Shown piece by piece: positions 7,057 to 64,000 of a DNA stretch of 64,000 nucleotides. This stretch comes from Tubulanus polymorphus. Its lineage: Eukaryota > Animalia > Nemertea. The notes beneath the pieces are model-generated. The model saw only the letters and a program-made list of their open reading frames with translations. It did not search any database and was not told the origin of the DNA. Numbering within the stretch: the first letter of the stretch is position 1; every line of letters starts with the position of its first letter. Made by a program: the position numbers and the translations under genes. The stretch spans positions 14,880,001 to 14,944,000 of the forward strand of contig NC_134025.1 of assembly GCF_964204645.1 (NCBI RefSeq), in the 5' to 3' direction.

Positions 7057-7077
7057 TAGCCGACCTTCAATGCTGCC

Positions 7078-38884: not shown

Positions 38885-39960
38885 AGTCAGTAATAGGGAA
38901 TAAGTTGTTTTGGATCAAAGGTCGAGAGGTCGTGTTCATAAAAAATGAAAAATAAATTCTCGCACGCTCGAATTTATTTTTCATTTTTTATGAACTCACC
39001 CTCTCAACCTTTAATCTGAAACAACTTCCCTATTACTTTTAAAATATTCATATATATGGATATGAATAACCTCTAAAATCAATTTTAATAAAAAATTTGA
39101 TATTAAAATGGAAGCAAATAAGAAATACTACTGTCGAGCATAATAATCTAGAAAAATAAGATCAAATATAGATTTCGAATGATCAAAAATCAATTTTTAA
39201 CATAAAAAGTGTGAGTAAAGTGTGAGTGAAATAATTCATATTTAATTATCAAAAATCAATTTTTAACATAAAAAGTGTGAGTGAAATAATTCATATTTAA
39301 ATCATTGAATATTTATATCTATATGCGTTAAATTCTTATTTTCAATATAAAAAGTAACGAGTGACTAACGAGTTGAAGAAAATATCAATTTTAATAAAAA
39401 ATGACTAATCATTGAATGAACAGATACTACAATTCAAAGATATCGATTTAAATGAATTAGAAAAATATTTTACAATTAAAAATTTCATTCCTATTAAAGA
39501 TTTGATTAAAACTGCACGTTTCCGTTTTCAGGTGAAAAATATTACTGAATTAATATTTAAAAATCATTATCTAATAATAGAGTTATCGAATGATAAAGAT
39601 TAAATCTTATTCAATAAAATAATTCCAAAATTCACAACGTTTGATGAAATAGATCAACATTTAATAATTACAGATGAAATGCAATCACTTTTTAATAATG
39701 AAAATTCACATAAACATTATTTCTAAACTTACGTTATTGTCCTTTCAGAGAATGCTATGTAATGTTTTTCAGAGTAGAAGAAAAAAGATTTACCCCTGAC
39801 ATTCCAAATGAAAAATCATTCAAAGATGTTGGAATTCAATGTAACTTAGACAATAAAATCGAAACACCTAAATATGAACCTAATGAAAAAGCGTTATGTA
39901 ATTGTGGAAAATACCAATAAGTAACAAGAAAATATGAATAAGGAACAAGTTACTTGTTCC
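38885..39960 (+). mobile_element. Rearranged terminal fragment of the Maverick-like element (hairpin terminus plus AT-rich remnants)
   Basis: Hairpin at 38889-39037. The following sequence matches 45400-45445 and 45807-45865 (ATTTGATATTAAAATGGAAGCAAATAAGAA). Confidence 0.75.
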
Positions 39961-41864: not shown

Positions 41865-44800
41865 TCAGAGGTTGCTAGCACTTGACCACATGATTTGGAC
41901 TCTCAACGAGTAACATAATCGTCGAGATATTTTGTCGCCTGATTCCGCGATGATTCCACTTCTCCTTTGGACTACGTTTTCCGGAGGTGTTTGCGGGCGT
42001 GTGTCGTTGTCAGACGGTGGAGTGTCGCCGATGTCTGCGGGCGCATTGTCGACAGGAACCGGTTCAGAAGTTTTCATTAGATGCTCGCCTGTTTCTGCGG
42101 TAACGCGTTCCATTTTGACTTATGAAGTATGATCGTGGAAATCCAGAGTGATGTTCTACAATCGCTGGTTGCCATGATTTGTCGGATGGGGCTCGTGTAC
42201 GTACTACATCTCCGGGTTGTAACTCTGGTAGTTCTTTCGAACCTTGGTCATACGATTTGCTCTGGCGGTCTCTCAGAGACTGTAGTGGCTGCTTCGTCCC
42301 AACTTGGGTGTATGGATACAGCAAATCTGGAACAGTGGGTAGTGTTCTGCATAGTTGTCTACTCATTAGTAGCTGGCTAGGCGACTGTGTCATTCCTGAT
42401 AGCGACGACCGATACTGTAGCGAAGCAATGTACGGATCAGAATCCTGGTCTTCGGTTTTCTTGAGCATTTCCTTCACCGTTTTAACAGCCCTCTCGCTAA
42501 ACCCATTCGATTGAGGAAACTGTGGACTCAAGGTGTTGACTTGTAATCCCCATTGATCTGCAAAGCGTAGAAATTCTCTGCTCGAGGACGGCATGTTATC
42601 GCATATCAATCTTTCGGGAATGCCATGGCGGGCAAATATGGATTTCATGCAATTAATTACCTCACGGGAATTCTTATTCCTCGTCAGGCGCAATAGTTCG
42701 GGGTACTTCGAGTAGCAGTCAGCTACAACAAGGTAGTTGCGACCCTTGAATTCGAGTATGTCCGCGCCAAGACATTGCCATGGGCGATCTGGTATCGGGA
42801 ACGATCGGAGTGTTCCAGGCACACGCCGCATTTGGACACCAGGCGATCAATGTCGCCATTGATTCCGGGCCAATACAGGACTTGCCTGGCACGAGCTTTG
42901 ATCTTCTCTGATCCGAGATGTCCTTAATGTAGCAATTCTAGCATTTGTGATCGCAAAGTAGCCGGAATGACGATGCGATTACCTTTCATTACGTCGACAA
43001 CATGGAGCACGTCACGAACGTCCCAAAGGTCTATTATGTTGGGCGATACGCTTGACTGTCGTTCTGGTCATCCATGCTTAATGGTGCTGACCAGTGTGAC
43101 TATTGACTCGTCCTGTAACGATTCTTTGCGTATCCGATCAAGCTTGTTCGTACTGACCGGTAAGTTCTCCATGAGAACATGAACCATGATTTCAATGTCC
43201 ATGTTCAGCCCAGTCTGATCGTTAATCGGGGCCCGAGACAGCGTGTCAGCAAGATACATGAGCTTCCCAGGCACATGTTTCACATCTTGCGTGTATCTCT
43301 GAAGATTGACCATCATCCTCTGAAGCCTCGGTGATGCTTTGGCGATAGGCTTTCTTGTTATGACAACAAGCGGTTTGTGGTCAGTCTCGACTTCGACGCG
43401 TTTACCATATATGTAGTGGTGAACCTTTTGCACGCGAAGCAAATAGCAAGCATTTCGCGTTCGATCTGGCCATAGTTCTGTTCTGCTGAAGTCAGCGTGC
43501 GTAATGCGTAGGCTACTTGGTGGTCGTCTTGCATGAGACAAGCACCAAGACCTGTTGGGGAGGCGTCGGCCTGTATCTTGACTTGTTTCTTCCCGTCGTA
43601 GAACTTCAGCACAGGCTGCAATGTGAGAACTTCTCTGATTTTATTCCCATTGCCACAATGTGTCAGCTTTGAGCAGGGATCGCAGCGGCCTAGTGATATC
43701 CGAGTGCCGCGGTATGTATGGTGACAGACATAAGAGCCTCTGAAGCGACTTCACGTCTTCTGGTGTGGGCATGTTGACGATAGCTTTGATCTTCGCTGGG
43801 TCAGGTCGGAGCCCATCAGAGGTAACAGTATTGCCCACATAGGAAACCTCTGGTACATGTATTTTGAACTGGAGCTTTGGCTTGTTCAATCTGGCACCCC
43901 TTTCACGTGTGCGCTGCATGACCATGTTGATTATTTCATCATGATCGCGATCGTAATCTCCTACTATGATCATGTCGTCCGTTATAACACCCAGTCAGTC
44001 GGACGATCCACCTTCGCGATAATGCCGGACGCTTCAAATTCAGTCAAGGTAGCTTTCAGCTTATTTCGACGAGCTAACGGAAAGTTCCTCGGAGACTGGA
44101 TGACGGGTGTGACGTTCGCATCGATTTATATGTCATAAGGCTTCTCGAACGCGCCGATGCCAGTGAACAATTTTACATATTTAGGGTTTTCTGACTTTCG
44201 TCGAAAACCCTCTTGAAATTCTGTTGATTATTATTATTATTATATATTTTCCGCCGATTTCGTCAAATAAAATTCATCTTCATTCAGATTCGGCAACTGA
44301 CAGCTTCGAAACGAAATGTATAAATTGATACTGTAATAACGGTCTCTCTGAACCAACAGATTGTCTGAATGTACTTTCCATCCTATTTGAAACTTAAAAT
44401 TACTTATTAGGTTACTGTAAATAAAGAATTGAATTGAATTGTTAGACAACAAGCACCGGCGAAATAACAGTTTGTGACGTCATTTAGTAAGTAAATAAAG
44501 GAGGGCTCCGAGAATTTCCAAATCACGGGGACTATACTGGGGTTAGACCATTCAACCAAAAAGAGGATTGCTCCGATAATATCCAAATCATCTCATTTTA
44601 TTTTTTCCATCGAATACCCGGTAATTAATTTTTCCTTTCGATCACATGCATCCAGAAAACCCGTTATCGCTGCTTTGCAGCTATATTGTTCTACTTGAGT
44701 TTCCTTCGTTAACAGTTGACTTTGTGAAGAGGCGACTGACAAAGCCTAAATCTTCACAAGCTTCGTGTCCGAGTATAGGTGATGCTGCCTGTTTGGTTAC

Positions 44801-45070
44801 GAATAATTTCAAAGTCTTCTCTGAGCCGCTTGGTGTGACACATTTTAGCTCAGTGACTCCCACAGGCTTTATCTTGTTGTTGCTGAAGTCAGTTAGACGT
44901 AAATTAGTACTCAGCAGTTCATGATTTCTTCTGAGTTTGCGAAACACCGATTCTGGGATTACGTTAGCTTGCGCACCCGTGTCCAAACGAAACGTTATGC
45001 TCTCGTCTTCAATTTTGACCTTTGTGTGCCACTTGTCTAACTTATCGACGAAGAGAGCACCGATGAAAAA
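41865..45070 (-). pseudogene. pol: Gypsy pol (protease, partial RT, RNase H, integrase), disrupted
   Basis: FRLDTGAQANVI; DDMII..PDPAKIKAI; QADAS..GLGACL..YGQIERE; ETDHKPL; ADTLSRA; FARHGIPE.LICDN..PQSNG.SERAVKTVK. Confidence 0.9.
44181..44687 (+). mobile_element. ~505-bp Helentron-type (HINE) element inserted in Gypsy pol
   Basis: Near-identical to 59635-60142, with subTIRs GGGTTTTCTG/CAGAAAACCC and a 3' stem-loop GCTGCTTTGCAGC. Confidence 0.85.
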
Positions 45071-45258
<188 letters not shown>

Positions 45259-45461
45259 CTGGTATGCGAGTCAGTAATTGGGAATAAGTTGTTTCAAGCC
45301 AAAGGTCGAAGGGTCGAAAAGTAAATTCTCTCACACTCGAATTTACTTTTCGACCCTTCAACCTTTAACTCGAAACAACTTATTCCCAATTACTCTAATA
45401 ATATTTATATATATGAATATGAATAACTTCTAAAATCAATTTAAAAAAATATGTTATTAAA

Positions 45462-45803
45462 ATTGAGAGTAAACAAATTTACAGTGAATTCTTAGATAGA
45501 ATAAAAGATACTACAAATGTCAAATCTGTAGATTATAAATTTAAGGAGTTAACCGAATTAACAATTCATAAGAAATATTCAATTACAAATATTAAAACAG
45601 TTACTAATAAATATGGAGATAAATTAATGATTCACTTAGAATATGAAGGATTAAAAGGAAATAAATATAAATTCAGAACATATTTGCCAGATAGATTTCA
45701 TAGATTATCTAGTGAAGATCTAGAAGAATTATGTTCAGGTGATTTCTATTTCATATACAAAGGTAAGGATGAAAAAGGCCACTATGATATAGATTTCGAA
45801 TAA
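45462..45803 (+). pseudogene. Small conserved terminal protein (start codon apparently ATG>ATT); paralog of 50828..51154
   Basis: Open frame of 113 codons: ..TNKYGDKLMIHL..FRTYLPDRFHRLSSEDLEEL..YKGKDEKGHYDIDFE. Confidence 0.7.
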
Positions 45804-47624
45804 TACAAAATCAATTTTAATAAAGAATTTGATATTAAAATGGAAGCAAATAAGAAGTTCTACTGTTCAACATGCAAAATCAATATAGATAAATCTCAAA
45901 AAGCAAGGCATGATAAAACTAAATCTCACTTAGAGAAAAAATTGAAATTAGAATATAAAGATGATATATTAGAAACTAAATTAGATGAATTAAAGAATGA
46001 AAAAGAAATATATAAATGTGATACATGTAATCAATCATTCAGTAACAAAAGATATTATATAGAACATTTAAAATCTAAAAGTCATATTAGAAATATGAAT
46101 AATGATATTTTTAGGTGAAGATTATTTTGATAAAGATAATGATAAAAAACAGAAGACAATTAAAAGAATAAAGAATAAATTAAACAATAAAAGACCATAT
46201 ATGGAAGACGTTAGAAATTATATTAATTCATTAGATAATAAAAAAGAAATAGAGATAACTCAAGCATTTAAAAGTGATGTTGGACCAGCTGCTATCGAGT
46301 TTAAATTTCATAAAGGTAAAACATTAGAAGAAAATAAAAAACATTTAGAAAATATGAAAAATATTATTAAAATAATTACTGAGGTAGAATACCCTAAAAT
46401 TAGCATATCAGTTAAAGTTAAATTCATAAAATCTGAAGATAAACCAATATCTAATATAAATTCCCATTCACAACATATTATATCTAAACAACATATAGAT
46501 GATAGATTAGATGAATGTTATAATGAAGTAAAAAAATAAAATAGAAGAGAAATTTTTTGAAGGATCAGGTTTAATATTCGATGAAATAATATTTATGACT
46601 TTACATGTTTATAACACAAAATATAATAAATTAACTGAATCAAACCAATAGATGAAAATAATTTATCATATTATAAAGAACCAGATATTGAAGCGTCGAG
46701 TTATATTAAACTACCATTTAAAACTAATGCTGTTATCAATGTTCACAATTTTGATGATAAATGTTTTCTATGGACAATTATAAGTTGTTTACACCCAGTT
46801 GAAGATTATAAACAACATAGTTTTAGATTAACACATTATAAACCATTTGAAAATAATTATAAGATAGATAATTATCCTGTTAGAATTAAAAATATCCCAA
46901 AAATAGAAAAAGATAATAATCTAAAAATAAATGTATTTGATTTAATCAAATTACCAAAAACAAAAGGTAACAAGGTGCCAGTGGGCACAGTGAGATTCAG
47001 CTTTGAAAGTAAATAGTCATGTGCTTGACAAATTGTCATGGGATGATGACATGTTTCTCATAAAAAGAAGAGTGGTTGACCCTCCACTGGACCAAGTAAC
47101 CAAAAATTGATTGAGGGAACTTATTTGGACCAGTGCCTGCTATGATGTATGAATAAACACTCAATTTCTATTGTTTGCACGAATTATGATTCTGGTTTCA
47201 TACTATCATTTTGGCCTTTGCCAAGCTGTCAGTTACAACGCATGAAACTGGGGACCAAGCAGCAGCAACAGCAGTAGTATATTTTTCTTATTAACTTCTT
47301 TATTGCAACCCTCAGAGGTAAATGTGCTACAGTCGTGGGATTCTTTTTCGTCTGTAGTTTCTGTATATTCATCATCTGAAAAAAATAATGGCAAAAAAAG
47401 TTAACTCATGTGAATAGTAACACCTTTTCTGGTTATCATTGGTGGTATACCTTGCTATTGCTTTAAAGGTTTAAACTCAATATACTAAGTTACGTAGAAC
47501 TTGAATGGAGCCATTAATTTCAATTAGTAGCACATACTTTATTGGGTTTATGGTATGCAAGCAACTGCATTAAGGTAGGACCAAAAGTGTTTACCATTTC
47601 AGTTGCAACACAGGAATACGTGTA

Positions 47625-48170
47625 TGGTAAGTAGTGAAGAGTTAATATCAGGGTATTGTAAGTGTTCAAGGGTTAATATCAATGTATGGTTAGAGGTGAA
47701 GGGTTGATATCAGTGTATGGTTAGTGGTGAAGGGTTAATATCAGTGTACGGTAAGTGGTGAAGGGTTAATATCAGTGTATGGTAAGTGGTGAAGGGCTAA
47801 ACTCAGTGTATATTAAGTGGCGAAGGGGTTAATATCGGTGAATTGTAAGTGGTGAAGGGTTAATATCGGTGAATGGTAAGTGGGGAAGGGTTAATATCGG
47901 CGTATGGTAAGTGGTGAAGGATTAATATCAGTGCATGGTAAGCGGTGAAGGGTTAATATCAGTGTATGGTTAGTGGGGAAGGGTTAATATCGACGTATGG
48001 TAAGTGGGGAAGGGTTAATATCGGTGCATGGTAAGTGGTGAAGGGTTAATATCGGTGTATGGTAAGTGGGGAAGGGTTAATATCGGCGTATGGTAAGTGG
48101 TGAAGGGTTAATATCAGTGCATGGTAAGTGGTGAAGGGTTAATATTAGTGTATGGTAGGCCTAGTAGTGA
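47625..48170. repeat. Minisatellite with a 31-bp unit GGTAAGTGGTGAAGGGTTAATATCAGTGTAT
   Basis: About 17 tandem copies. Confidence 0.95.
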
Positions 48171-48424
48171 AGCGCACACCTGGTCAAAATGGAATGTAAA
48201 AATTATTAACTATTAAATTATTAACAGTGCATCACAGGGTTATTAATATTGCAGGGATGTGGCATTTTAAGCAGGCATCCTAATGGGGTTTCAATAGTTA
48301 GGCCTTTTATATCCCCGGGTTTCAAAAACATTGATCTATATATGGCCTAAGCCTATATCGGTATGTATTTCTTGTTGAAAAATAAATGAACTCAAGGATG
48401 AAAATAAAGTAGCCTTATATTTTA

Positions 48425-48960: not shown

Positions 48961-50827
48961 TTATTGGAATATTTATTAAGCCCAAGCGCAAAAACGTTAA
49001 CTCCAGCAGTAAGGTATTGTTTTTTTAATGAACTGAATAAATTGCGTCTGTGGTTGTACAACTACGTATGTATCAATGCCTGTATAAACATCAATGACTA
49101 TAGTGCTGTACTACTGTACTCAGCACAGCACGTATATATGGTCGCTTCGACCGAATGCATTCAAAGAAAGGTGAAGCTTCACTTAACTAAGGCCGGAACG
49201 CGCTTGTGTAATTCATGGACCGAATAATACGATAAATATACATAATCGTGGATTCAAGACCACTGTCTGGATATATGGGCAAGTAATATCCTAACATCAC
49301 CTACAAGTACCGGCCGAGCTAGCGAAAAAAAATTGACGTACGTTAAGGCCTTAGTGCCGCCGGACGGGAACTGACAAGACACATCATCAGTGAAATTGCC
49401 AGTTAAATACGCATTGACAACTCTTATTCTCGACAAAAAACCCGATTCAACGCTTTATTGACATCTAGTCTAAACATAATTTACACATCAAATCCTGTCA
49501 TTTTCACAAAAAGAATGTAAAATGCCGGTACCTACCTCTAGACTCGCGTCACAGTAAGTCAATGGCGGCGCGCCGTAGTCACGTATCCATTCGCAATATT
49601 CAGTATTTGTCTACTAGCGCATGGAAACTATATTTTCCCGTAAAATATTATGAAAGTTTTAAGGGACGATCGAATGCATCTACTTAGAAAATATTTGCAG
49701 TTTCGGACTCATGCGATAAGACGTTGGCCTACTGGTACGAGGATCTTTTTACGGCGCGTATATCTACATGTATAAATGTCATTCAGATGGGCGTGCTGCG
49801 GTTCGCCTCCACGCGAAAATGACGTCACATGTCACTTCAGAAATGCCCAAAATCGTATGGAAATTAGCCCCCAGGGCCCAAATTAGATACACCAGATATC
49901 CATACCACCAGAAATTATGACCCTCCAACTGTAACAATCCTGTTGACATAACACTCATAGCGTCAGGTGCTACAGATTAAGCGGAGAAGTTGTGCAACAC
50001 TAATCAGTCGGCACCATTTAGTAAACTAATAGATTCAGCTGCGCTGAATCTAATAATATTAAACATTATACATTAAAACCTTTATACCTATCAAAAGATT
50101 ATGATTCAAATGGTGTTATAGATATATTATATTATGAGAATCATTATATGTGAATAAAGCGTATTGATTTATTTTTCAAATCAGAAAATGATTTTGATAA
50201 TAAGATATATCTATGTAGAAAATGTTAACATAAATTCAGAACTGAAAGAAAATCTTAAATGAAAGAAATTAAATTCTAATGAAAATGATATAATTGATTA
50301 TTCAGATCCTCTAATAACAAATACTATTAAAAAGATTCATCAAAGTGCTGCAGCTTTTGGATTATATATAAAATCTGATTATCCAGAACTAATTGAAAGT
50401 GAATATTATCATTATAGAAATGAAAATGTTATCAATCATTTTTGTGACTTATTAATTGAATATGAAATGAAATTTAATGAAAAGTTAAACAAAAATATAG
50501 AAATTATAATGACAGAAGAAGATAAAGAAGAATTTGAGTTTGCTGATAAATGTTTTTATTGTGAAAAGATATTTAATCTAAAAGATAAAAAAGTTAGAGA
50601 TCATAATCATTTGAATGGTAAATTTAGAGGTGCAGCACATGAGAATTGTAACTTTTAAGCTAAGAAAATCAATTTTGTTCCAGTTATATTTCATAATTTA
50701 TCAGGGTATGATGCTCATTTATTTATCAAACAGCTATGTTATAGTAATTGGAAAAGTGGGCTTTCAGACCAGAGGACGAGAGGACGAGACACCTCTCATC
50801 ACCACAAGTAATTTTTTTTTCTTATAA

Positions 50828-51154
50828 ATGGGAGATAGAAAAGCATTCTTAGCAACAATAAATAACAGAATAAAACCAGCAAAAAAACAATTTGAAATAA
50901 AAAAGTTAGTTGATGTTACAAAAGAAATTGAACATAAAATGTTGAAATTAGAAAAGATAAAAACTAAATATGGAGAGAAAGTATCAGCGAATTTAAGTTA
51001 CTGTAATGTTAGTACATCGCGAGAATTTAAAGTATTTTTACCTGATAAATGGGTTTCATTGAGTACAGAGGAATTAAAAGATTTAGAAGGATTTAAAATA
51101 ATCCATCATGGAAAAAATGAAGATGGTCATCATGATTTAGAAATTGTTGATTAA
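50828..51154 (+). CDS. Small terminal protein, paralog of 45462-45803 (function unknown, possibly ssDNA-binding)
   Basis: KTKYGEKV..FKVFLPDKW..EELKDL..HGKNEDGHHDLEI aligns with the element A ORF. Confidence 0.7.
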   Translation: MGDRKAFLATINNRIKPAKKQFEIKKLVDVTKEIEHKMLKLEKIKTKYGEKVSANLSYCNVSTSREFKVFLPDKWVSLSTEELKDLEGFKIIHHGKNEDGHHDLEIVD

Positions 51155-51319
51155 AAAAATAAATTGATAATAAAAATAATGAATATCTAGAATCCGAAAT
51201 GACTTATCTGGACAATTCAATTGCTCCGCGTAGATAGACAAAAGTAGTGATATGGTGCCGTACATGGTGATATTCAATTGATTTAAAAAAATTATTTTTT
51301 TGCTTTTTTTTCTAAAATA

Positions 51320-51673
51320 TTAATCCATTTTTTTTATTGTCAATTTTTGAATTTCAGAAGTATTTTCATTTTTAATAGCAGTAGATTCAGAATTATTAAT
51401 ATCATAAATTTTATTTGATTTCTTATACCAACTACACCCAATCAAAATGAACACAATTACAAATCCAGTTGCAAAATATGGATATTTATCAAATATTCTA
51501 TTATTAGAAGGAGTAGAAATAACAATATTTTCACCATTTTTATTAACATTTTTATTACTAATTTTTTCTTTTACAGCTTTTTTATATTCTTGTGATTTAA
51601 TTCCTAATTGCCGAGACCATTCAATTTGTTTCGGAGTTCTCGTTTTTTTCTTCACTTCTTCCACCTTGCTCAT
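51320..51673 (-). CDS. Small protein with one hydrophobic segment
   Basis: Intact 117-aa ORF with a TAAATG start and the segment YFATGFVIVFILIGCSW. Confidence 0.65.
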   Translation of the reverse strand: MSKVEEVKKKTRTPKQIEWSRQLGIKSQEYKKAVKEKISNKNVNKNGENIVISTPSNNRIFDKYPYFATGFVIVFILIGCSWYKKSNKIYDINNSESTAIKNENTSEIQKLTIKKMD

Positions 51674-52210
51674 TTATTATAGAAAAATTTTTACTTTCAA
51701 TATTTGAAAATGTTATAACTCCAGTTGATAATAATGTCATAAATCCACCTAATTGAAATGATGAATATCCAATCCATTTATTTAATTCAATCATAACTAA
51801 ATAATCATTTTTTAAATCGGAATAAAATCTATTTTCATCTTGAATTGGTAGCATATATTTACATAATTTACTATAACCTTTTACTACATTTTCTGATATC
51901 GCATCATTAATTCTAGCTTTTCTCGCAGTTTCATAAATCTTAAATAATCTAATAATTTCATCTGATTTCATTGTGTCTAATTCATTATAAGTTAGATTTT
52001 TACCAATAAAAGTTTTACATTTCCAGATGCTATTAATATTTCTAATTGATGTTTGCAATAAAGATAATATATATAATTATTATTTGTTGTAACATTATTT
52101 AAAGCACCATCATCTGGAGTTAATTTTGTTTCTGTTATTCCTAAATCATCTAAAGTTTTTTCAATTGGAACATCACTATTTTAAGATTTTATTTTCTTTT
52201 CACTTCCCAT
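51621..52210 (-). pseudogene. Hypothetical element protein (disrupted 5' part)
   Basis: 145-aa ORF, with an upstream TAAATG start at 52210. Confidence 0.55.
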
Positions 52211-52241
52211 TTATATAACAAACAAATTAGTTGTGTTGTTG

Positions 52242-52540
52242 CAACTAGAATTCAACTAGAATGTAACTAGAATTCAACTAGATTAACAAGCTAGTTGAAA
52301 TATTGTTGTTTTTATTTATTTCTTGTTGAATTTTATTTGATTTTTGTTTCAACTACTAACAACTAGAATTCAACTAGAATGTAACTCGAATTCAACTAGA
52401 TTAACAAGCTAGTTGAAATATTGTTGTTTTTGTTTATTTCTTGTTGAATTTTATTCAATTTTTGTTTCAACTACCAATAACTAGAATTCAACTAGAATGT
52501 AACTAAAAATATACTAGATTAACAAGCTAGTTGAATTTGA
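52242..52540. repeat. 2.5 copies of a 118-bp palindrome-containing unit
   Basis: CAACTAGAATGTAACT starts at 52253, 52371 and 52489. Confidence 0.9.
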
Positions 52541-53151
52541 ATAAATTCATATTTAAATGGGTGTCGTAATCGAAATAGTAATTTTGATCTTTTATTATTT
52601 TTCAATTTATCCATATGTTCATTATGTAAATCATGCGGAATAATATTATTTTCCTCAAGTGCATTTTTCATCGATTTCCAATCTTTATTGTAGAATAATA
52701 CTAAAAATCTAATGTTTTCTCTAAAATCTTTAACAATTGAATTATATATTTGATTTAAAACCCATGTTGTTATCCCAAAATGTCTCCCAGAGAAAGCTAA
52801 ATAACATAACACACTTTCTCTAACTTTTGAATCATGTAAATTTGCACAATCATCTATAATGAATAATGTATTTGAACCTTTATAAATATCAATTGCTATT
52901 TTGTTTTAGGATCTAATATAATATATATATATAATAATATAATATAATAATATAATAAATTTATTATTTCTAGTAATATTTCTATCATAAGTTTGATTAA
53001 ATTCATATGTTGGACAAAATAATACTATACTATCAAAATAGTTTTTATAAATAGTTTCTAATAAATTTAATATAAAATAAGTTTTTCCACAATTTGTTAC
53101 ACCAGAAATTAACATATTATGAGGTTCAAATATTAATAATTCCTTATTCAT
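52519..53151 (-). pseudogene. A32/FtsK-like genome-packaging ATPase (frameshifted)
   Basis: Walker A ISGVTNCGKT; Walker B FIIDDCA (~52845-52865); SGRH..ITTWVLNQ. Confidence 0.9.
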
Positions 53152-54286
53152 TTATATATTTTTAATTTTACTTGATAATATCCATTCATTAAATTTATCT
53201 GGCCATCCAACCCATTTTACTAAAGAATATTTTTTTCTTTTAATAGTTTTTGTTTTTAATACTTTTTCAATTTTATATTCTTGTTCTAGATTTTCGGTAG
53301 TTAAACTTAATTCTTCTTCATAAAAATACCAATCAACTTCTTCACCATTTAAATCTCCTAATTTATAGACATATGGTTTTGTTGTTATTACCTTTTTTAT
53401 TTTATATATTTCTCTCGTAAAATTACGATCGTATCCTTTATCAAATATCTTTTTATACTTAGAAATTCTAACATTTTGACCAACTTTAAATTTAGGTTCA
53501 CCAAAATCATCTACAAGAAATGCTCCGTATAAATTATTCCAAACAATTTCAGCATTTTCAGGTTTTTTAGCATCAATAGATTTCATTCCAATAGAAGAAT
53601 GATAAGAATTATTATAACCTTCTATCAATTTTGGTAAAACATCAAACATCAATCCATTTAAAAGTATTATTTGCTGTAAAATATTTCCACATTCTTGTTC
53701 TTAATGTTCTATTAAATCGTTCAACAACTGATGCTTTTTCATCCGATTTTGTTGAAAAATATTTAATATTATGATTATCTAAGAGTTCATGAACAAGTGA
53801 ATTACCAAATTCTTTTCCATCATCAAATTGTATTTTTTCTGGTTTTAGTTTATCATCCGAAAGAGATTTTCTTAAAACATTTGATGTTTGTACAGCATCT
53901 TTTCTGCAAAGTGGGAAGCTCCATACATAACGACTAAAAATATCAATCATATTCAATATCCACCAATAATCATCATTATCTTTCTTAATATTTTTCATAT
54001 CAATTAAATCTCCTTGCCACTGTTGATCTACATAACTTACCATAGTTTTACGAGTTTTATATTTTCTAACAATTTTTTTATGTGTTGTATATGTTGGTTG
54101 TTCTAACATAAATTCATTTATATCTTTATATTTAACTAAATTTTGTGGGATTATCTTATCTAATTTATCTTTTTTTACTTGACGCCATATATTTTTGGTA
54201 GAAGAATAAGCAACCGAACTCTCAGGGTTGTAATATAAATTTCTAAAATATTGTTCTTTAGTATTAGGAGTTTTTTTACCACCCAT
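53152..54286 (-). pseudogene. Retroviral-type (rve) integrase with a C-terminal chromodomain, one frameshift
   Basis: WQGDLIDM, IDIFSRY, QFDDGKEF, VVERFNRTLR, YNNSYHSSIGM, FKVGQNVRI, YKIEKVL..LVKWVGWPDKFNEWI. Confidence 0.93.
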
Positions 54287-54316
54287 TTATATATCGTTAA
54301 TTTTAACTTAATATTT

Positions 54317-55564
54317 CTAATATTGAATACTATCTAATTGAGAATTTATAATATTTAATTGCGCGTCAGATATAATATAAATGTGCATTTTGAAATTTTT
54401 GATTCCTTTCTTCTTTTTCATGAATAATTGTATCCCATCTTTAGTATTCTGCAGCTTTTTCACAGAACCATGTAATGAATTATCCTCTGTTGTTCTAAAA
54501 TCTAACCATAATGCATATTTATTACCGGTATAATAATCAATTTGATTAATATTACAATTTTCAGATGATTTTACTTTTTCATTCATAAAATGTTTTCTAA
54601 TTTCTGGCCACTGATCTATCATTCTCATTCCCTGACAAAATATTTTATTTGCTATTCCTTCGATAGTTATTTCTACTTTTGTTATTTCAGGATTATAATA
54701 ATCATCAACATTTATTACGCCATTAGATTATGTTGCAATCGTAAAAAATATTAATATACCTTTAATAGATCTTCTTGGGAAGTTAATATTCTCATTAATA
54801 ATTTCATCAGTTGCATTAATAGTTACAGTTTTAAATTTATCAATATAATCATATAATAATGAAAATCCTTGATTGTATTGAGTTTGAATTATCCTTGAAA
54901 TATTTTCATCAGTTACTGTATCATATTCTAAACATATATTCGATAATTTATAACCCATATCTTTAATTATACTTGATATTAAAATTTCATTAACAGGAGC
55001 AAATGTTATTTCGAATATAACATCTTCTTGTATTGCATGTTTATATAAAGGTGCATTATTATTTATCAATTCAAAATCTAATGGAATTTTATATTTGCTT
55101 CCATAAATCTTTTTGATCAAATTATCTGCGGTACGAGTTACTATTGCGTCATTCGCTCCTGATCTTAATTTATTTTGGTTTTCTGATTGGATGCCTTGAA
55201 ATATCATATTATTTCTATTTTCTTTAGTTAACCATAAATCTTTATAATGCATAAATAAATTATAATCATCTAATGAGAAAACTGTTTCTGGTCCAATCTT
55301 TACAGTTAATTTTTTAATCAAATATCTTCCAACATTATCAACAACATAATTATTATTATTACCAGCTACATTTATATCAGCTGATAAATAAATACTATTT
55401 GGAACATAAAAACTATTTTGTGTTAATCTGGGGATTCTAACATATAAAGTTTCGGCGGGATTAATATTAGAAGGATTATGAGTAATTATATGATGAGATC
55501 TTTCTGCTTTAATAGCGTTAGATATTCTAGAATTCCTAGAAGGATTTATATAACTCCCACTCAT
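54317..55564 (-). pseudogene. Probable major capsid protein (double jelly-roll), frameshifted
   Basis: About 415 codons when joined, beta-rich, located beside the integrase and ATPase. Motifs HNPSNINP.ETLYVRIP.L, LSNICLEYD and LWLDFR..DN.LHG. The fold is inferred. Confidence 0.7.
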
Positions 55565-57026
55565 TTATTTAACAAAAGAATTAATTTTTTATTTTTTATC
55601 ATATTCACTAACCCAAAAATAATAGCACTTACAACTGTAATTAAAAATAAAATTATATGTTCAGCAACATAGTTAAGAATATTCCCAGCAGATTTTAAAA
55701 CAAAACCAACAATTGATGCAATAATTCCGGGTTAAGCTGCAGCAGATTTTTTAGATAATTCCCATAAATATTTTGCTAATTTTTTTAAACCATCTTTCAC
55801 TTTATCTTGTATATAATTATTATTTGGTGGTTTATCAGGTGGTTTAGGATTTGGTGTAGATTTTAATGAATTTGATATTGCTAAACCTATTGTTGTAAAT
55901 ATCATAGTTACAGCTGTTAGAATTGAAAGAATTGTTATACCTTCTAACTTAAATAATAACTTTATTCTATCTTTCAATGATATTTCAGAATTTGGTTTTA
56001 TTAGATATCTTTTAAAAACATCTTTTAACCTTTTAAAATTATTACCATATTCTTTTAAAAGTAATTTAATTTCTTCTTTCTGTAATTCTGTTATATTTTA
56101 AATCATCAATTTCTTTTTCTAAACGTAATTCTTTTTGTCTATATTCCATTTCATCAATTGCTTGATGATCTTAATCAGATTTTGATTGTTCTAATTCTTT
56201 ATTTTTCCCAGATAAATTATCTTCTAAAAGCATAATTTTTTTATCTCTTTCTAATTTTATCTCAGAAATTTTATCAGCTTCCTTTCTTATACCTTCTAAT
56301 ACCTTCTTTCTCTAATTGCTTCATCAGGAAATATATTCAAATCTTCTAATTCTTGATCTGTTGCATCAAGTAATCCACTTTGTAAAAGTTTTTCAGTTTG
56401 AACTTCGGTTGATTTAAGTTTACTAGTTTTGGAATTAATAACTTCTTTAGGAATTGTTTCTGGTTCTAAATTTTCATTAATTATCTTCAATAAATCAACA
56501 TTTCTTTGATTAAATTCTCTTTTATTTAGAATTATCTCTTGTTCGGTAACATCAGTTTTAACATCATTATTGATTTTCTTAATTCTAGATTGTTCTAATT
56601 TAATTAAAGTTGGTTTCGTTATTATTTTATCGAGACTTTATTAAAAGATATCTTAAAATAATAGTCATCTTTCAAATGCCAATAATAATCACCATTTAAA
56701 TATTTCAAATCTTTTACTAAATAATTCACACCTTTATTAGTTATATTGAAACCAGATTTTTTTTTAAACTGGTTTACATTTTTCAGTTAATTCTTCATAT
56801 TCTAATTCTTTTTTTCAATTAAATCTGGATTTTAATTTTCAATATCCAATCTTGAACGTGCTTTATTAACATATTCATTAGTATCAGGTATTGCTAAATA
56901 AGAATTAAATGCTGCTTCATTATCATCATTAAAACTTGTTTCATCAAAAACGGGCGGTTGTTCTTCAGTTATGCCGGGTTCGTTGTAAGTACCCATTTCA
57001 TTATCTTCTCCCACTTTTATATCCAT
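55565..57026 (-). pseudogene. Long decayed coiled-coil/membrane protein gene
   Basis: Collinear ORF fragments 56832..57026, 56296..56490 and 55732..55977, with hydrophobic C-terminal segments. Confidence 0.55.
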
Positions 57027-57056
57027 ATAAATAATAAAATAATAAAAGAATTAAAA

Positions 57057-58366
57057 TTAAAAATATAATATTCCTCCTATTACAATTCCTATACAAGTTT
57101 TAGCTAATTTAGTATTTTCATTGGATTTATTATCATTATTAGTTTTAATTATATCATGTTGAATATTATCAGTTTTTATATCACCGTGTGGGTGCCGTAC
57201 GGCACCATTTTCTGTAGTATTGTAATCTTTTATTTTAGAATCATTATTCAATTTAATATTATGAGTTTTAGTTTCAGTTGATTGAATATTTTTTCTATTT
57301 TTTTCACCTTCCATTAATTTTGGAGCAGTAATAATCTTTTTATTTATGTCATTTAATCCAAATGAATTATTTATTGTAGCAGTTTTAATCAAATTATTGT
57401 AACCAATCATATTTCCCATTTTTAAAACTAAATCATTAGAAATGATTAATAAATTAGGGCCTATACAATAATTTAATCTAATATGTGATTTATCTAAATA
57501 ATTTTGGTACCTAACTATATTTTCTGGAATCGATCTATTTTTATCATTATGAATGGAATCTTCAAATAAAACTTTAAATTGTTTCTGCGCATCAATTGAA
57601 GTGTTATCATTTCCAACTATTGGTGATCTTGTTTCAACTTGCGCACCTAAAATACATGTCAAATAAGTTCTAATAGATTGATTTATTCTTTGTATACCTG
57701 ATTTTGTAAAACCTTCACTATTTTCTAAAATGAAATTAATCCAACCATTATTATTATCAATTTTATAATTATCATAAGATCCAATTCTATGCATATAATC
57801 AATTCTTTTTATTTCATACTGTTCACCAATACCTTGCAATTTACCATGCGCTCTAAAATCGGAATTAATATTTATATTAAATTCATTACATATTTTATAA
57901 AACTTAGATAGATTAATATAATTGTCCAATTCTTTAAAATATTTAGATCCGGGCAAAGGACATTCTAATTCATTTAATATTATTCTGATTTGAAAATACG
58001 TGTGAAATCTAAATATTGTGTGAATTAATTTTAAATCAGAATAATTCAAATTTTTATCTAAGTTGTTTTAATGATCATTCCAACTTATACCACAACCAGT
58101 TGTTGCACAATAAACAGCAAAATTTAATTGATTCTGCCAATATTTCATATTAGATTTTACTTTATATATATGATATTCATCACGAGTAAAAGTAACTTTA
58201 TATGTATTAAATATATTTTCCATTTTAGTATTATAGCAACATAAATTTCTAAATTAGTTTATGAATTTAAAACTAAATTTCTATATGTAATATTTTTATT
58301 AAAATCTATTGCAGGAATATTATATTTAATTGATTTATTATATTGGAAAGCTTTTGGAAACCCCAT
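57057..58366 (-). pseudogene. Uncharacterised element protein with a hydrophobic C-terminus
   Basis: 330-aa open segment plus upstream fragments (YWQNQLNFAVYCATTGCG) back to a TAAATG start near 58366. Confidence 0.6.
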
Positions 58367-58398
58367 TTATATAATAAAATTATATAAATTTATATAAA

Positions 58399-58833
58399 TT
58401 AATAATTCATTAATCCTTTTAATAATTTATCCTGTTCTTCAATTGCTATATTACCATTTAAACTTATTATATAATCTAGTGTGTTTTTTAATTTATTAAT
58501 TTCTTTTATATTAGTTTTAATTTTTTCTTTATTACTTTTTATATTCAATTTTGAATTTATACCAGTTAACACACTTGATGATAATCCTAGCACGCCAATT
58601 GATATAGCTAAAGGTGTGAATGGACTGAATATTGCTAAAAATGTTATTACAGAACTAATTGTAACTGAACCACTAATAATAAAATCATAAATAATTTTAC
58701 TTTTTAAATATTTTTTCTTTTTTATCTTTAAGTCACTTTAAAATTCTAATATTTGTTTTTCTAAATATGTTTTTAATTTAGTTTTATTTATATCATGAGG
58801 AATAATATCAATATTATCAACGTTATCATCCAT
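58399..58833 (-). pseudogene. Small hydrophobic protein, disrupted
   Basis: 64-aa ORF plus an upstream TAAATG start. Confidence 0.5.
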
Positions 58834-58852
58834 TTATTTAACAAAAAAATTA

Positions 58853-59274
58853 CTAATTAGTAAATTTATATGCTACAAATATAACAATAACAGTTCCACC
58901 TAAAATCCATATTATTTCATTCTTCTGTTCACTACTTTGGGTATAATAATCTGATAATTTAGGTTTGTATAGATGTAATTTTTCTTTATTGGTTACCGCG
59001 TTATATAAACTCATTTCATCATCGACTGATTGAAAATCTCTATGTGAAATCTTCTGATAATATAATTCTTTGTTAATATAATCCATATAGTTTTGTCTTT
59101 TTTCTCTATATTCTTCTGCTGCTTTATTATATTTTTCTAACGCTAAGTTATGTCTTTTTTGTTCTGATAATGAACCATTTTTATCAATATGCTTAAATAT
59201 ATAACCACCACCAGTAAATGCCGTTAACAATTAACAATTGCCGATCCTATAATAGTTATAATTGCAGAAGCCAT
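58853..59274 (-). pseudogene. Small membrane-associated protein (frameshift near the start)
   Basis: AFTGGGYIF..EQKRHNLALEK.. with a C-terminal hydrophobic segment and a TAAATG start at 59274. Confidence 0.6.
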
Positions 59275-59298
59275 TTATTTAGTAAAATAATTACGCAC

Positions 59299-59520
59299 TT
59301 ATATAGGAGGAATATATTTTTGTTTTTCCAAATAATCAATAGTTAAATTAGATAAAGTAACTGCTAATGTTAATTTTAAGATATCATTTATATCAAATCT
59401 ATCAACATTAAAACTTCCCATTTTAAATACTTTTTTTAATACCATTGAATAACCAACAGTTCCAACTGATAATAATGCTCCATTATATAATCCAGTTATT
59501 ATCCACTTATTATCACTCAT
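59299..59520 (-). CDS. 73-aa hydrophobic protein
   Basis: Intact ORF with a TAAATG start. Confidence 0.65.
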   Translation of the reverse strand: MSDNKWIITGLYNGALLSVGTVGYSMVLKKVFKMGSFNVDRFDINDILKLTLAVTLSNLTIDYLEKQKYIPPI

Positions 59521-59634
59521 TTATTTATCAAAAAAATTACTGTCTTCAAAATATTCATTTATCTTAGTTATAATTATTTCAACATTTATATTATATTACA
59601 GTATTATTAGTTTCATTTTCATATATTTCAGTTA

Positions 59635-60142
59635 TTAGGGTATTCTGACTTTCGTCGAAAACCCTCTTGAAATTCTGCTGATTATCATTATTATATATTT
59701 TCCGCCGATTTCGTCAAATAAAATTCATCTTCATTCAGATTCGGCAACTGACAGCTTCGAAACGAAATGTATAAATTGATACTGTAATAACGGTCTCTCT
59801 GAACCAACAGATTGTCTGAATGTACTTTCCATCCTATTTGAAACTTAAAATTACTTATTAGGTTACTGTAAATAAAGAATTGAATTGAATTGTTAGACAA
59901 CAAGCACCGACGAAATAACAGTTTGTGACGTCATTTAGTAAGTAAATAAAGGAGGGGCCCGAGAATTTCCAAATCACGGGGGACTATACTGGGGTTAGAC
60001 CATTCAACCAAAAAGAGGATTGCTCTGATAATATCCAAATCATCTCATTTTCTTTTTTCCATCGAATACCCGGTAATTATTAATTTTTCCTTTCGATCAC
60101 ATGCATCCAGAAAACCCGTTATCGCTGCTTTGCAGCTATATT
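59635..60142 (+). mobile_element. ~505-bp Helentron-type (HINE) element inserted in the Maverick
   Basis: Near-identical to 44181-44687. It interrupts a minus-strand ORF starting near 60395. Confidence 0.88.
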
Positions 60143-60418
60143 TATTCTTTTAATATCATCAATGATAAAATCTTCATCTAATTCATAAAATCTTAAAGAT
60201 TCTCTAATTAAATTAGTAATCTAATCTACATTTAAAGTTTCTTTATCTATTGTTTTTTTCATACTCAAATGTTGTTTCATTAGAAAATGCAATATTTCTA
60301 ATATGTGTAATTACATCAGTAATGTTAAATTTCATTTCTTTCTCATGTTTAAAATCGAATCCAAAACATATACTCGGCCCAACAGTTATATTCATTTATA
60401 TAGTGAAAAAATTATTCT

Positions 60419-61121
60419 CTACATCTTATATAAATCAATTAGATATCCATTATGATTTCTAATTTCTAATCTAAAATTATTAAAATGAGGAATGCATGGT
60501 TTGAAATCAGATTCTGTTAAATTATAATTTATTTGAGTTACAAATTGTTTAACATTTTTTAACGGTAAAATATTTAGTATACTAGAACTACAAATTGTTT
60601 CTTTAGTTGCTTCGAAAGTTTTTGTAGGATCGATTAAATTGCAATAAATATAAAAGTGTGTAAAAGGTATTATATTTGAGATGCCTTCTGCGTTTCCAGT
60701 AACTGTACGCGGTTTAATTGGTTTGTTTACCATAAATTTATGTTGTTCATTAGATATCTTTATTCTTATTTCATTAGTACTATCAATTTTATTAAATTGA
60801 ATTTCAAATTCAGAAGTGCCCCCGATTTTCAACCGAGCTCTTCTATTAATTTCCTGCGCTAATGATTCTAAATTATATAATCCTGGTTTTAAAAATAGAT
60901 GAAACCATTTATCTTTATTTCTCATATAAATCATAAACCCTCTATCTTCCAAAGTTTTATCCGATATATTATTTAAAAAAATTACATAAACTTACATTTA
61001 CTTATTTTAAATCAACACAATTCTTAAATTCTCTATCTAATTGTACTAGTAAATTATGTGATTTAGAATTTAACAGTTTTCTAGAATCAACAAATATTCT
61101 ATATTCTTTTAATTCAACCAT
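60419..61121 (-). pseudogene. Candidate minor capsid (penton) protein
   Basis: N-terminal IFVDSR, then PGLYNLESL..EIN, HFYIYCNLID, ILNILPL and LEIRN.NG..ID, resembling single jelly-roll pentons. Confidence 0.55.
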
Positions 61122-61189
61122 TATTTATAACATAAAAAAATTACCTCTCATCACTAAAAATTAATTTTAGTAAAATTTTTCCAAAATAA

Positions 61190-62491
61190 ATGGATGAGAA
61201 GATACCATGTGAAATTTGGGGTGAACTTCTAAGAAAATGTAGTATGGCTCGACATATCAAAAAACATGATAAAAATTATAAACCCCCTAAAATAAACTGC
61301 CCAAATTGTAATAAATTATTCTCAAGAAATTATGTCAAAAAACATCCAGAGAAGTGTAAAATTAATGACACAACGGTTAATGTTAATAGTAACGAAAGTA
61401 ATAGTAATTCTGTTGAAGTTGAATCTGAAATTATTTGAAAAGACATTTCTTATTCTATGATAAGGATAATATAAAAGATTATTTCTGTGAGCCTTGTCGA
61501 ATAAAATATAGACATGAAAATATAGAAGATTGGGAGAATCATCAATTTCGTAAAGCACATATAGATAAAATTGGAAACTGAATTCAATGAAAGAAAGGAT
61601 AAAATATTAGAAAAAATTAAATATGAGAAAACGTTGCCAGATAATGAAGAAACACTTAAAAAGTTGGATAAACAATATAATGAATTAGTTAGAAAAACAT
61701 ATTATTGTAAATATTGTAAATTGATTATTACAACAAGTAATTCAAATCTACATAATAGAACAATAAAACATAAAGAAAACGTAAGAAAATACCAAGAGCT
61801 TAATGAAGATCTATTACCAAGAAATGATAGAAAAAAATGCCCACAATGTATTTATGAGTACTTAAGACAAGAAGGTTCTGTGATATTTTGTAATGAATGT
61901 GGATGGCAAAGGAATTTATGGGGTGATGAAAAAACTAGAGATATTCTTATAGAACCAAAATTAAAATATCTAGATGAAATTTTTAAGATATTTTCTATGG
62001 AAGATCATACACCAGAATATAAGCAATGGCTTGAAAAAATGAAAATGATAGAAAACAAAAATGGTGAAATAACTAAAAAAGATATAATAAAAACAATTAT
62101 TCCGTCAACATTTAACACACAAGAAAAGAAAATGTATTTATATCTATTATTTAACGATTATTATAAAAAACCTAAATTAACAGAAGAAGATACGGAATAT
62201 ATAAAAGAAACATTCAAAAAAATATTAAGATATTATGTGGATAATAGAATAACTGATTCAATTAATTATGAATTCTTTTTAAATAAGATTGTAAATTTTT
62301 TAGACATCGATATTATAATTCCATTTGATGAATTAACAAACAAAAAGAAACAAAGAGAGCGAGATGAAATGTGGTACAATATAGAACTTTATTTAAATGA
62401 GAAAAATGAAATGGAAGAACGTAAACAATTAAATGAAAATGAAGAAACCAGTAGTGATTTCCAGTATGATGATCTTGATTTTATGTTTTAA
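61190..62491 (+). pseudogene. Zinc-finger plus VLTF3 (poxvirus A2-like) late transcription factor-like gene
   Basis: Zinc-finger motifs, a CPQC..CNECG ribbon and a C-terminal SINYEFFLNKI..KKQRERDEMWYNI. ORFs 61190..61438 and 61571..62491 are probably one broken gene. Confidence 0.55.
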
Positions 62492-64000
62492 TTAACCATA
62501 AGGTAATGTTTTTATTCCATCACCCAAAATATATCTTATATCATCGAAATGATTTAAACTAGTTTTTTCAACTTCATTAATGTACATTTCGTGATCTTCT
62601 GATCTTAAACAATTCATTTAATGTTTCATTACAATTGAGATATATAAACACTTTATATAATCTTGAAATTCTATATGTTTATCAACCACATGTTTTGTTA
62701 TTCCTTTTAACTTTTTAGCTGCATGATCTTTTGTTCTATAACTATACGTTTTACTTCTTATCCCAACAAATTCAATCATTTCATCAATTCATCTTTAAAC
62801 TTACCAGGAATCTTTTTATTATCATTGCTAAATAGTTCATGATCTTTGGGATAATTGCTAAAATCAAAATGATGTTTTAATGTTTTTAAGTCTTTTGTTA
62901 TGTCATTTGTCTTGATTTTTAGTATGTACGCGTCAGTATTTTTTTGGATTAATGGGAACCCAGAATTGAATGTTCCATCATCTGTTGATAAATCATAAAC
63001 ATAGTCAGTTGGGTTATATATTTCAAATAAATCTCTGACATCTTCTGTTAATTCTTTTTCTACATGCCTTAAGTTAAAACAATTTGGTTTAGATTTAATT
63101 AATTCTATATTCATATTAAATCCTAATGAATTACATAATATATACAATCCTGATATAGCAACATTTCCTTTTTGCGCAAATGTTATTACTCGAGATCTCG
63201 TATATTTTTTCTGTCCATCTGCTGCGTAGAATCCAATGAAGAACCATTTGCTAAAATTATATTTGGCATTTAATACATAATCTGGCACTATCTTTTCTTT
63301 TGTTGAAGTATTACTTTTCACTATTGCATGAATATAGAATTCGTCATTATATTTTATAGCAAAATCTTTAGGATTATTCACAAGTATTCTATAAACGGCT
63401 GATGATTTCATAACATCCATGATTCTAAATGTTTTATTTGAATTAACTTCTTCACAGTATTTCTTTATTCTTTTTAATAATTTCAAATCTTGATTGCATA
63501 AATACCAACAATATTTATTACCCCAAACATAATTATACACACCTGCTGAACCATCGCCCATGAAAAATCCTTTGATAAAATATTCTTTTTCTTCTAATGT
63601 TTCAGGTTCTATATTATAAATATTATCAATTATTTCATCAAATGACATATGATTCATTCTTTGGAAAAATCGTTTATGTAATAATTCATCCCCAATTTTC
63701 AGTTGGTTTTATTTCATCGCCATTTCGTTTAATTAAACTATGATCTTCTGTAACATCAACAAATCCTAATTTAGTTCTAACTCTATAAATCTTTTTATTT
63801 GTTTTATGCCTAATAATATTCTTTCCATCCATTTCTTGTCCAAACATCCATTAATCCATTTATTTGTATTAATTCTTTTTCAACATATGAAATATAACGT
63901 TCATTTTGTTTTGGAATTATTTCTGAAATTCTTCTTATCAATATTTTATCATTACATTTTAATAATATTGGGGTGTCAGCTGTTACAGAATCAAAATATA
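62492..64000 (-). pseudogene. polB: Maverick protein-primed DNA polymerase B, C-terminal part, intein-interrupted
   Basis: YFD|intein|TDAY..FDFSNYPKDH.LFS..NKKIPGKFKDE..EFVGIRSKTY..KKLKGI..LRS..H..FDD.RYI..DGIKTLPYG*. Confidence 0.92.
62938..63989 (-). mobile_element. Intein with a LAGLIDADG homing endonuclease
   Basis: Block A SVTADTPILL; block B VDVTEDHSL; endonuclease motifs FIKGFFMGDG and FFIGFYAADG; block F YVYDLST; block G IQKN, followed by Thr+1. Confidence 0.93.

Follow-up and report, generated by a model that had tools for sequence, protein, structure and literature searches.

We analysed a 64,000-nucleotide window of the genome of the nemertean Tubulanus polymorphus (NCBI RefSeq assembly GCF_964204645.1, contig NC_134025.1, positions 14,880,001 to 14,944,000, forward strand). 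From position 50,743 to its end, the window holds a decayed, multicopy Maverick/Polinton copy, identified as such by the joint presence of an rve integrase, an A32-like packaging ATPase, a capsid protein and a DNA polymerase of family B (PolB). Nearly all of its genes begin with a motif resembling poxvirus late promoters, and, as the original prediction held, no RNA polymerase gene was found in the 13.3 kb of the element inside the window, nor in the 11.5 kb of L001, a syntenic metagenome locus. Given this promoter-like architecture and no visible RNA polymerase, the polymerase would be borrowed from a poxvirus-like virus. We consider it likely, at a probability of roughly 0.55, that a poxvirus-like helper virus in the cytoplasm provides, or once provided, the RNA polymerase that transcribes this Maverick lineage as its satellite. 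The wider proposal, that this entire lineage among animal Mavericks consists of integrating satellites of an undiscovered poxvirus-like virus whose polymerase is engaged by a VLTF3-like factor, we hold tentatively, at somewhat less than even odds. The finding bears on how animal Mavericks are transcribed and on any need for a helper virus; helper dependence has been proposed for vertebrate Mavericks without data (PMC8097293) and, from co-occurrence, for entomopoxvirus-associated polinton-like viruses (PLVs; PMC11296320).

Gene starts carry a candidate late-type promoter

Gene starts in the window element were placed by comparison with L001, and 12 of the 14 read TAAATG, as against 28 of 484 other ATGs (p 1e-12). 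An alignment of the capsid protein led to 18 metagenome loci, of which L018 (a weak, 31% match) was left out, two (L016 and L017) form a sister lineage, and L001–L015 make up the family set. Within this set TAAATG stands at 54 of 64 open reading frame (ORF) starts and at 84 of 2,205 other ATGs, and it is kept at 16 of 18 starts in five loci of 32–44% GC. The sequence upstream is also constrained, with A in 75% of cases at −18 and T in 70% at −13 and 89% at −12; the T peak thus lies 9–10 nt before TAAAT. The whole pattern, TAAATG plus the fixed upstream positions, marks 11 of the 14 window starts and 8 of the 484 other ATGs. Position −3 is T in 85% of family starts, which runs counter to the animal Kozak context, where a purine is favoured. 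In six divergent pairs, both partners open with TAAATG and the starts are separated by just 19, 24, 24, 28, 28 and 30 nt; the gap is 64 and 72 nt in two further pairs of the family.

In vaccinia, late promoters have been described as a TAAAT that is followed by G and overlaps the start codon, a T being conserved ten bases upstream (PMC11980589). The promoters of the element match this late motif of a large virus, a likeness that belongs to the virophage lifestyle; the match was judged against the published description, with poxvirus sequences themselves outside the comparison. The sister lineage L016/L017, set apart from the other 12 capsid rows with support of 100/100 (midpoint root), has TAAATG at 0 of 7 starts, and giant-virus loci have it at only 117 of 1,159 ORF starts (10%), with 0–2 per locus in those nearest the intein described below. 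The poxvirus-late-like starts that the original prediction had noted in this copy are therefore borne out, and the argument from them is stronger than first made, being family-wide and joined by the upstream T tract, the back-to-back starts and an avoidance of TTTTTNT.

TTTTTNT, the poxvirus early terminator and thus an early-gene signal (PMC3061580), occurs 16 times in the coding strands of the family, with 42.7 occurrences expected from synonymous-codon shuffles. Leaving out two near-duplicate loci gave 16 observed versus 37.4 expected, a ratio of 0.43, compared with 0.58–1.03 in twenty equal-sized giant-virus subsets. Control motifs were near expectation (five Ts followed by two non-T bases, 39 versus 45.6; T4-V-T, 82 versus 72.5), and AATAAA is common and not avoided (161 versus 173 expected in 48 kb).

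Two variants of the start context were seen outside these gene sets. Some starts in L016/L017 have TATAA-like text a few bases upstream. The polymerase starts at 39,109 and 45,840, in two related fragments of the window, read TAAAATG and have an upstream A-rich TTTTAATAAA box, which in these two cases is nearer the published intermediate-promoter pattern than the late one.

A distant VLTF3-like gene

Within a zinc-finger and VLTF3-like gene, we found a VLTF3-like ORF at 61,565–62,491. Pfam gave no Pox_VLTF3 match and a homologue search returned none, while the ESM Atlas ranked PF04947 clusters first (0.82, a lead only). The reference for profile comparison was VLTF3 from six giant-virus loci (L170 was dropped, the extraction rule having given no ORF). 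Against these, hhalign gave a probability of 93% over 206 collinear columns with a score of 54.3, where 100 shuffles reached 15.4 ± 2.7 and at most 22.5; the part without the zinc ribbon scored 26.9 against a shuffle maximum of 23.1. The HMMER match was weak (E 0.07, rank 2 of 1,250) and one of 1,000 shuffles outscored it, and phmmer against 2,794 giant-virus ORFs near PolB found nothing under E 0.02. We set aside a single-sequence fold of this ORF, which had a predicted local distance difference test (pLDDT) score of 39.6. The VLTF3-like gene of the original prediction thus survives in the hhalign comparison and falls below threshold in Pfam and HMMER, so that a VLTF3 identity is likely, if distant. 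VLTF3 in animal polintons is already known. It has been reported in coral polintoviruses (PMC11131425, which cites Krupovic and Koonin 2016), and mriyaviruses, whose lifestyle is inferred to be nuclear, have VLTF2/3 and lack an RNA polymerase (PMC11253617), so this evidence cuts both ways.

A proposed poxvirus-like helper and its alternatives

With a poxvirus-like helper, transcripts of the element would start inside TAAA and acquire a poly(A) leader by slippage, standing in for the 5′ leader that back-to-back starts lack. The helper's late complex would be joined, or competed for, by the VLTF3-like protein, and the element would be copied by its own polymerase, packaged into its own capsid and maintained between infections by integration, as in mavirus. 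The intein would be a relic of earlier contact with a Megaviricetes-type giant virus, since inherited, lost or moved among Mavericks, and would not name the helper. There are precedents for several of these steps: TAAA initiation with a slippage poly(A) leader was shown for vaccinia and yeast virus-like elements (PMC6211774), mavirus promoters match the late motif of the helper (10.1101/068312), and PLVs have been found in entomopoxvirus occlusion bodies (PMC11296320). If this model is right, these genomes would be written for a helper's polymerase, through late initiator, T tract and terminator avoidance, and fresh copies could serve as an inducible antiviral reserve in the animal genome.

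The TAAATG starts, the T peak, T at −3, the closely spaced divergent starts and the depletion of TTTTTNT are all consistent with such a helper, as is the absence of TAAATG from L016/L017, and a deoxynucleoside kinase is present in L001 and L008. Several points weigh on the other side. No transcript, 5′ end or helper was seen; L001–L015 are related rather than independent trials, and the metagenome loci carry no host assignment. TTTTTNT is not enriched past stop codons (10/59 sense versus 15/59 antisense), so that a role as a working terminator is not supported; taken by itself, the window copy shows no significant depletion (4 versus 7.2), and an early signal should not constrain late-type genes, which leaves the avoidance unexplained. 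The part of the element beyond the window could hold further genes. The relatives found for the intein and for the VLTF3-like protein are of Megaviricetes type and not poxviral, in comparison sets that held no poxvirus sequences, and viruses with no RNA polymerase also have VLTF3 (PMC11253617).

The alternative that survives best, though we regard it as unlikely, is an autonomous nuclear Maverick with a late switch of its own, host RNA polymerase II being brought to the TAAATG box by the element's VLTF3-like protein and a helper not being required. The element keeps a VLTF3-like gene, where a pure satellite could rely on that of its helper; mriyaviruses (PMC11253617) offer a nuclear parallel, integration needs the nucleus, and tens to hundreds of diverged copies attest to spread with no helper in view. 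What argues for the helper over this alternative is the spacing of the genes, since starts 19–30 nt apart leave no space for ordinary polymerase II promoters and leaders, together with T at −3, unavoided AATAAA and the specific depletion of TTTTTNT, none of which is expected under polymerase II.

We think it quite improbable that this is an ordinary Maverick, with TAAATG serving as a context for translation or arising as a side effect of high AT content and the packing of genes, and with the intein, VLTF3 and kinase acquired long ago and independently. In favour of this reading are the 76% AT of the element, the stop codon reused at the ATPase start, and the exchange of genes between polintons and large viruses (PMC11131425, 10.1101/2024.03.23.586382), but the motif persists in the loci of 32–44% GC and comes with fixed upstream positions, and in only 1 of 57 cases does its TAA serve as the stop codon of an upstream gene.

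A giant-virus-type intein in the polymerase gene

The polymerase of the window copy is interrupted in motif C by an intein (63,989–62,938, minus strand) inserted as YFD/S...QKN/TDA, with S first, KN last and two LAGLIDADG-type blocks (LAGLIDADG_3, E 1.8e-6). Among the best 150 of its 1,297 relatives, the flanks were RNA-primed-type PolBs in 131 cases and Maverick-type in 4, with none assignable in 15; PF00136 was present in 32 of 37 relatives scanned, and nearly all listed relatives are inserted at YGD/S...N/TDS. The 12 best matches in IMG/VR lie on contigs of giant-virus metagenome-assembled genomes (GVMAGs), and 3 of 6 looked-up names of giant-virus neighbours were found in a table of PMC8575486, all three Imitervirales. 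Alignments were used to locate the giant-virus relatives; a single giant-virus PolB query gave no match.

We built a 58-row intein tree from the window piece, the best 40 of 101 inteins from giant-virus loci, 13 database rows and 4 Maverick-type rows; the intein trees were unrooted, and archaeal and phage inteins were not included. The five Maverick-type rows, two of which are fragments assigned only through their grouping with relative P0114, fall together in a single clade (100/98) that lies among giant-virus rows. Support for the sister group of this clade is weak (86/92), and 1.73 changes per site separate the clade from the nearest row outside it; a quick tree of 133 rows agrees. The motif C site, splice residues, LAGLIDADG blocks and tree position all uphold the giant-virus type assigned to this intein in the original prediction, and the Maverick inteins do not group away from those of nucleocytoplasmic large DNA viruses (NCLDVs). 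The greater diversity of giant-virus inteins suggests transfer from giant virus to Maverick.

Identities of intein and flank fall in step (73/88, 42/48 and 38/50%), and the polymerase relative P0165, 90% identical in the intein flank, has no intein; together these point to one old contact and not to a current partner. The shared compartment that the intein had been taken to imply is thus credible as a past contact, whereas an old clade 1.73 changes per site from its nearest neighbour does not identify a present one. A Maverick polymerase thus probably took up a canonical intein from a giant virus and kept it, with filled and empty alleles in close relatives. Read depth was 84–254 over the intein versus 286–405 over its flank, so that the species may carry alleles of both kinds.

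The labelled giant viruses near the intein are Imitervirales, and TAAATG starts are infrequent in the giant-virus loci, so the intein donor was probably not the helper that the promoters match. Although known virophages parasitise Imitervirales, and both the GVMAG matches and the three labelled neighbours point to that order, we find it very improbable that the helper was the Imitervirales-type lineage that gave the intein, as the single-helper reading first offered had it, since TAAATG marks only 117 of 1,159 ORFs in the giant-virus loci (0–2 per locus nearest the intein) and the intein is old, with a weakly supported sister group. Donor type and promoter type probably differ, so the signals do not point to one helper. 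Nor are the signals, once presented as several and independent, all independent or all diagnostic, the intein being old and VLTF3 already published in polintons. AT-rich, intronless genes are usual for Mavericks; AT-richness, lack of introns and hairpins were all rejected as helper evidence because they do not discriminate. Taken as a whole, the original observations held and their interpretation held in part.

Gene content, decay and copy number

The features of the main element and of two related fragments are as follows, with strand given after the coordinates.

50743..64000, no strand: Maverick/Polinton copy; right end outside the window
50743..50790, plus: left end, starts AGTAAT; resembles the hairpin ends in their first arm (about 63%), with no long hairpin of its own
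50828..51154, plus: 108-residue ORF, candidate single-stranded DNA-binding (SSB) protein; TAAATG; Atlas 0.88 to a cluster that is 44% Phi29_Phage_SSB (lead only); 69% identity to an L001 ORF
51320..51673, minus: 117-residue conserved ORF with a hydrophobic stretch; TAAATG start
51621..52210, minus: family ORF (206 residues in L001), broken; TAAATG start
52519..53151, minus: A32-like packaging ATPase in two frames; TAAATG; Pox_A32 (PF04665) E 1.1e-6; 74% to L001
53152..54286, minus: rve integrase with a chromodomain at its C-terminus, split over two frames; TAAATG; rve PF00665 E 3.6e-11, Chromo E 8.9e-5
54317..55564, minus: double-jelly-roll major capsid protein in two frames; TAAATG; 59 homologues; fold model
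55561..57026, minus: family ORF (485 residues in L001) in several pieces; start without TAA
57057..58366, minus: family ORF (442 residues in L001), broken; TAAATG start
58399..58833, minus: two-helix membrane ORF, broken; TAAATG; weak SLATT match in the L001 homologue
58853..59274, minus: family ORF (139 residues), broken near its start; TAAATG start
59299..59520, minus: 73-residue family ORF; TAAATG; 90% to L001
59635..60142, no strand: inserted host repeat; 95–100% identity to 44,181–44,687
60246..60395, minus: start of a family ORF (126 residues in L001), broken; TAAATG start
60419..61121, minus: putative minor capsid protein, broken; start TAATG; label from size and position, with no family match
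61190..62491, plus: zinc-finger and VLTF3-like parts of what is probably a single gene, spread over three frames; TAAATG at 61,190
62495..64000, minus: C-terminal part of the family B polymerase, broken; 70–88% to the intein-free relative P0165
62938..63989, minus: LAGLIDADG intein in polymerase motif C, in three frames; giant-virus PolB type
45269..46977, plus: older related copy, left part, with hairpin 45,273–45,394, SSB-like ORF and polymerase N-terminus (start TAAAATG)
50031..50742, plus: continuation of the older copy's polymerase, cut by the main element; P0165 residues 358–657 align
38885..39920, plus: third fragment, more decayed; hairpin 38,889–39,037, then directly a polymerase-type start

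The main element is an insertion into the polymerase gene of another, older copy of the same family, and its left boundary at 50,743 is exact because the interrupted polymerase aligns as far as 50,742. GC content is 0.24 over 50,743–64,000, compared with 0.39 over the first 38.8 kb of the window. The right end lies beyond the window with about 1,160 polymerase codons, which gives an estimated total length of about 17 kb if nothing beyond the rest of the polymerase and an end follows. Most long genes are split over two or more frames, and a host repeat is inserted at 59,635–60,142, in agreement with the decay described earlier. From 1,934 Mb of raw DNA reads labelled as the same species, 8,811 reads mapped to 3.8 kb at a depth of 82–554, and only 137 of them were at least 99% alike; depth and divergence indicate a diverged multicopy family which, according to the size of the genome, would number tens to hundreds of copies.

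The TAA in the ATPase start TAAATG doubles as the integrase stop codon, and the L001 homologue of this ATPase matches PF04665 at E 4e-11. A model of the first piece of the capsid protein (278 residues, pLDDT 83) is a jelly roll, with Foldseek matches of E 7e-9 to NCLDV capsids and 3e-6 to PBCV-1 and vaccinia D13; NCLDV capsids were the best matches and a virophage capsid came at rank 29. No ORF of the window or of L001 matched an adenovirus-type cysteine protease, several ORFs being without assignment and the right end lying off-window. With NCLDV-type best capsid folds and no recognised protease, we did not place the element in Virophaviricetes; it may behave as virophages do and yet not belong among them. 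Polymerase motifs A, B and C were read by eye in P0165, which matched neither PF03175 nor PF00136 at E 1 and did not match the flanks of RNA-primed PolBs; by these motifs and its context, the polymerase is putatively protein-primed. A missing Pfam polymerase match has been described for a divergent Beta class (PMC8502044), and gene content is described as more variable in group 2 Polintons (10.64898/2026.06.19.733378).

Searches of PDB sequences with polymerase and capsid profiles gave nothing useful, NCBIfam and PHROGs named none of the unassigned ORFs, and Rfam had 0 matches within 38,000–64,000. No relatives of the element were found in IMG/VR by capsid, capsid alignment, intein piece, polymerase or ATPase alignment, or in prokaryote genomes by pattern scan, such scans being insensitive.

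Three pieces of this family lie inside 25 kb of the window, and about 3 kb of other DNA in turn separates the two parts of the older copy's polymerase. A 118-bp tandem repeat at 52,242–52,595, between the ATPase and the next gene, has two near-identical copies and a partial third. The flanks hold remains of reverse-transcriptase and rve retrotransposons and two 31-bp satellite arrays (4,132–8,900; 42,064–45,000; 13,148–14,454; 47,558–48,231).

Hairpin ends and rearrangements

Near-perfect palindromes open both related fragments, one of 122 nt at 45,273–45,394 in the older copy (z −15.7) and one of 149 nt at 38,889–39,037 in the third fragment (z −14.9); the left end of the main copy has no hairpin (z −0.9) and only a one-arm likeness. 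The predicted hairpin ends are thus real in two fragments, as palindromes just inside an integrated end, which do not by themselves establish closed telomeres and are uninformative about a helper. Both run AGTAAT...ATTACT and keep TAAATTC, a 10-nt loop and GAATTTA, and one has in both of its arms a block that is missing from both arms of the other, so that the arms change together. The late-type initiator beside a hairpin may recall the arrangement of poxvirus resolution sites.

Comparison of 39,060–39,110 with 45,423–45,840 showed that the 39-kb fragment has no SSB-like ORF, and that this ORF sits between two similar promoter-like repeats in the 45-kb fragment; deletion between the repeats would explain the difference. 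A 13-gene structural block (51,320–61,121) is inverted relative to L001:565–10,340, between the SSB-like and zinc-finger genes. The deoxynucleoside kinase lies at one edge of the L001 block (E 2e-31), with a homologue in L008 and none in the window copy, and its search found only 4 close relatives. At L002:5568–6080, L007:3289–4020 and L008:1717–2445 there are free-standing ORFs that belong to a single family, match HNH weakly and have family-type starts, and an unassigned ORF of 277–431 residues, also with family-type starts, follows the capsid gene in L002, L003 and L005.

Comparison with known systems

In the available literature we found no description of poxvirus-type promoters or of a motif-C LAGLIDADG intein in Mavericks, although Repbase-style notes or supplementary tables may record them; the available text of PMC12220804 and 10.64898/2026.06.19.733378 has nothing on promoters. 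With Mavericks/Polintons (Polintoviricetes, "adintoviruses"; PMC8502044) the element shares an rve integrase, A32 ATPase, double-jelly-roll capsid and many integrated copies, and with their Beta class (PMC8502044) a family B polymerase with no PF03175 match. It differs from them in that no capsid protease was recognised in the window or L001, in its family-wide TAAATG starts and in its canonical polymerase intein. As here, mavirus carries a PolB and an rve integrase. The mavirus provirophage (10.1101/068312) is likewise integrated, with promoters matching a large virus's late motif, but its host is a protist, its capsid is that of a virophage, and its helper and induction were shown by experiment.

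Coral polintoviruses (PMC11131425) have a VLTF3 homologue in an animal polinton, for which exchange with giant viruses was already suggested; the available text mentions no promoter, intein or hairpin. Gene flow from egoviruses to protist polintons has also been reported (10.1101/2024.03.23.586382). The PLVs associated with entomopoxviruses (PMC11296320) are likewise small jelly-roll DNA viruses, proposed as poxvirus satellites in animals. They are about 12 kb long, have a protease, and were found together with their helper; two have no known integrase and two a tyrosine recombinase. The available text names no TAAAT, intein or VLTF, whereas the present element has an rve integrase and promoter evidence and no helper.

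The intein shares its site, its splice junctions (S...KN/TD) and its LAGLIDADG core with giant-virus PolB motif-C inteins such as that of Mimivirus (PMC549080), and is 35–41% identical to the best giant-virus rows, but sits in a Maverick polymerase. Nuclease insertions in polinton polymerases have only been suggested to derive from inteins (PMC11161782), and HNH and VSR domains were reported there with no LAGLIDADG in the available text (10.1101/2023.08.22.554363).

Vaccinia late and intermediate promoters (PMC11980589) and yeast virus-like elements (PMC6211774) share with the element a start-overlapping TAAAT initiator and upstream T, and both encode their own RNA polymerase, of which none is visible here. 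Their slippage poly(A) leader would be the predicted output of the present element. The fixed 20-nt promoter architecture makes the helper question testable and predicts the kind of virus to seek in host reads.

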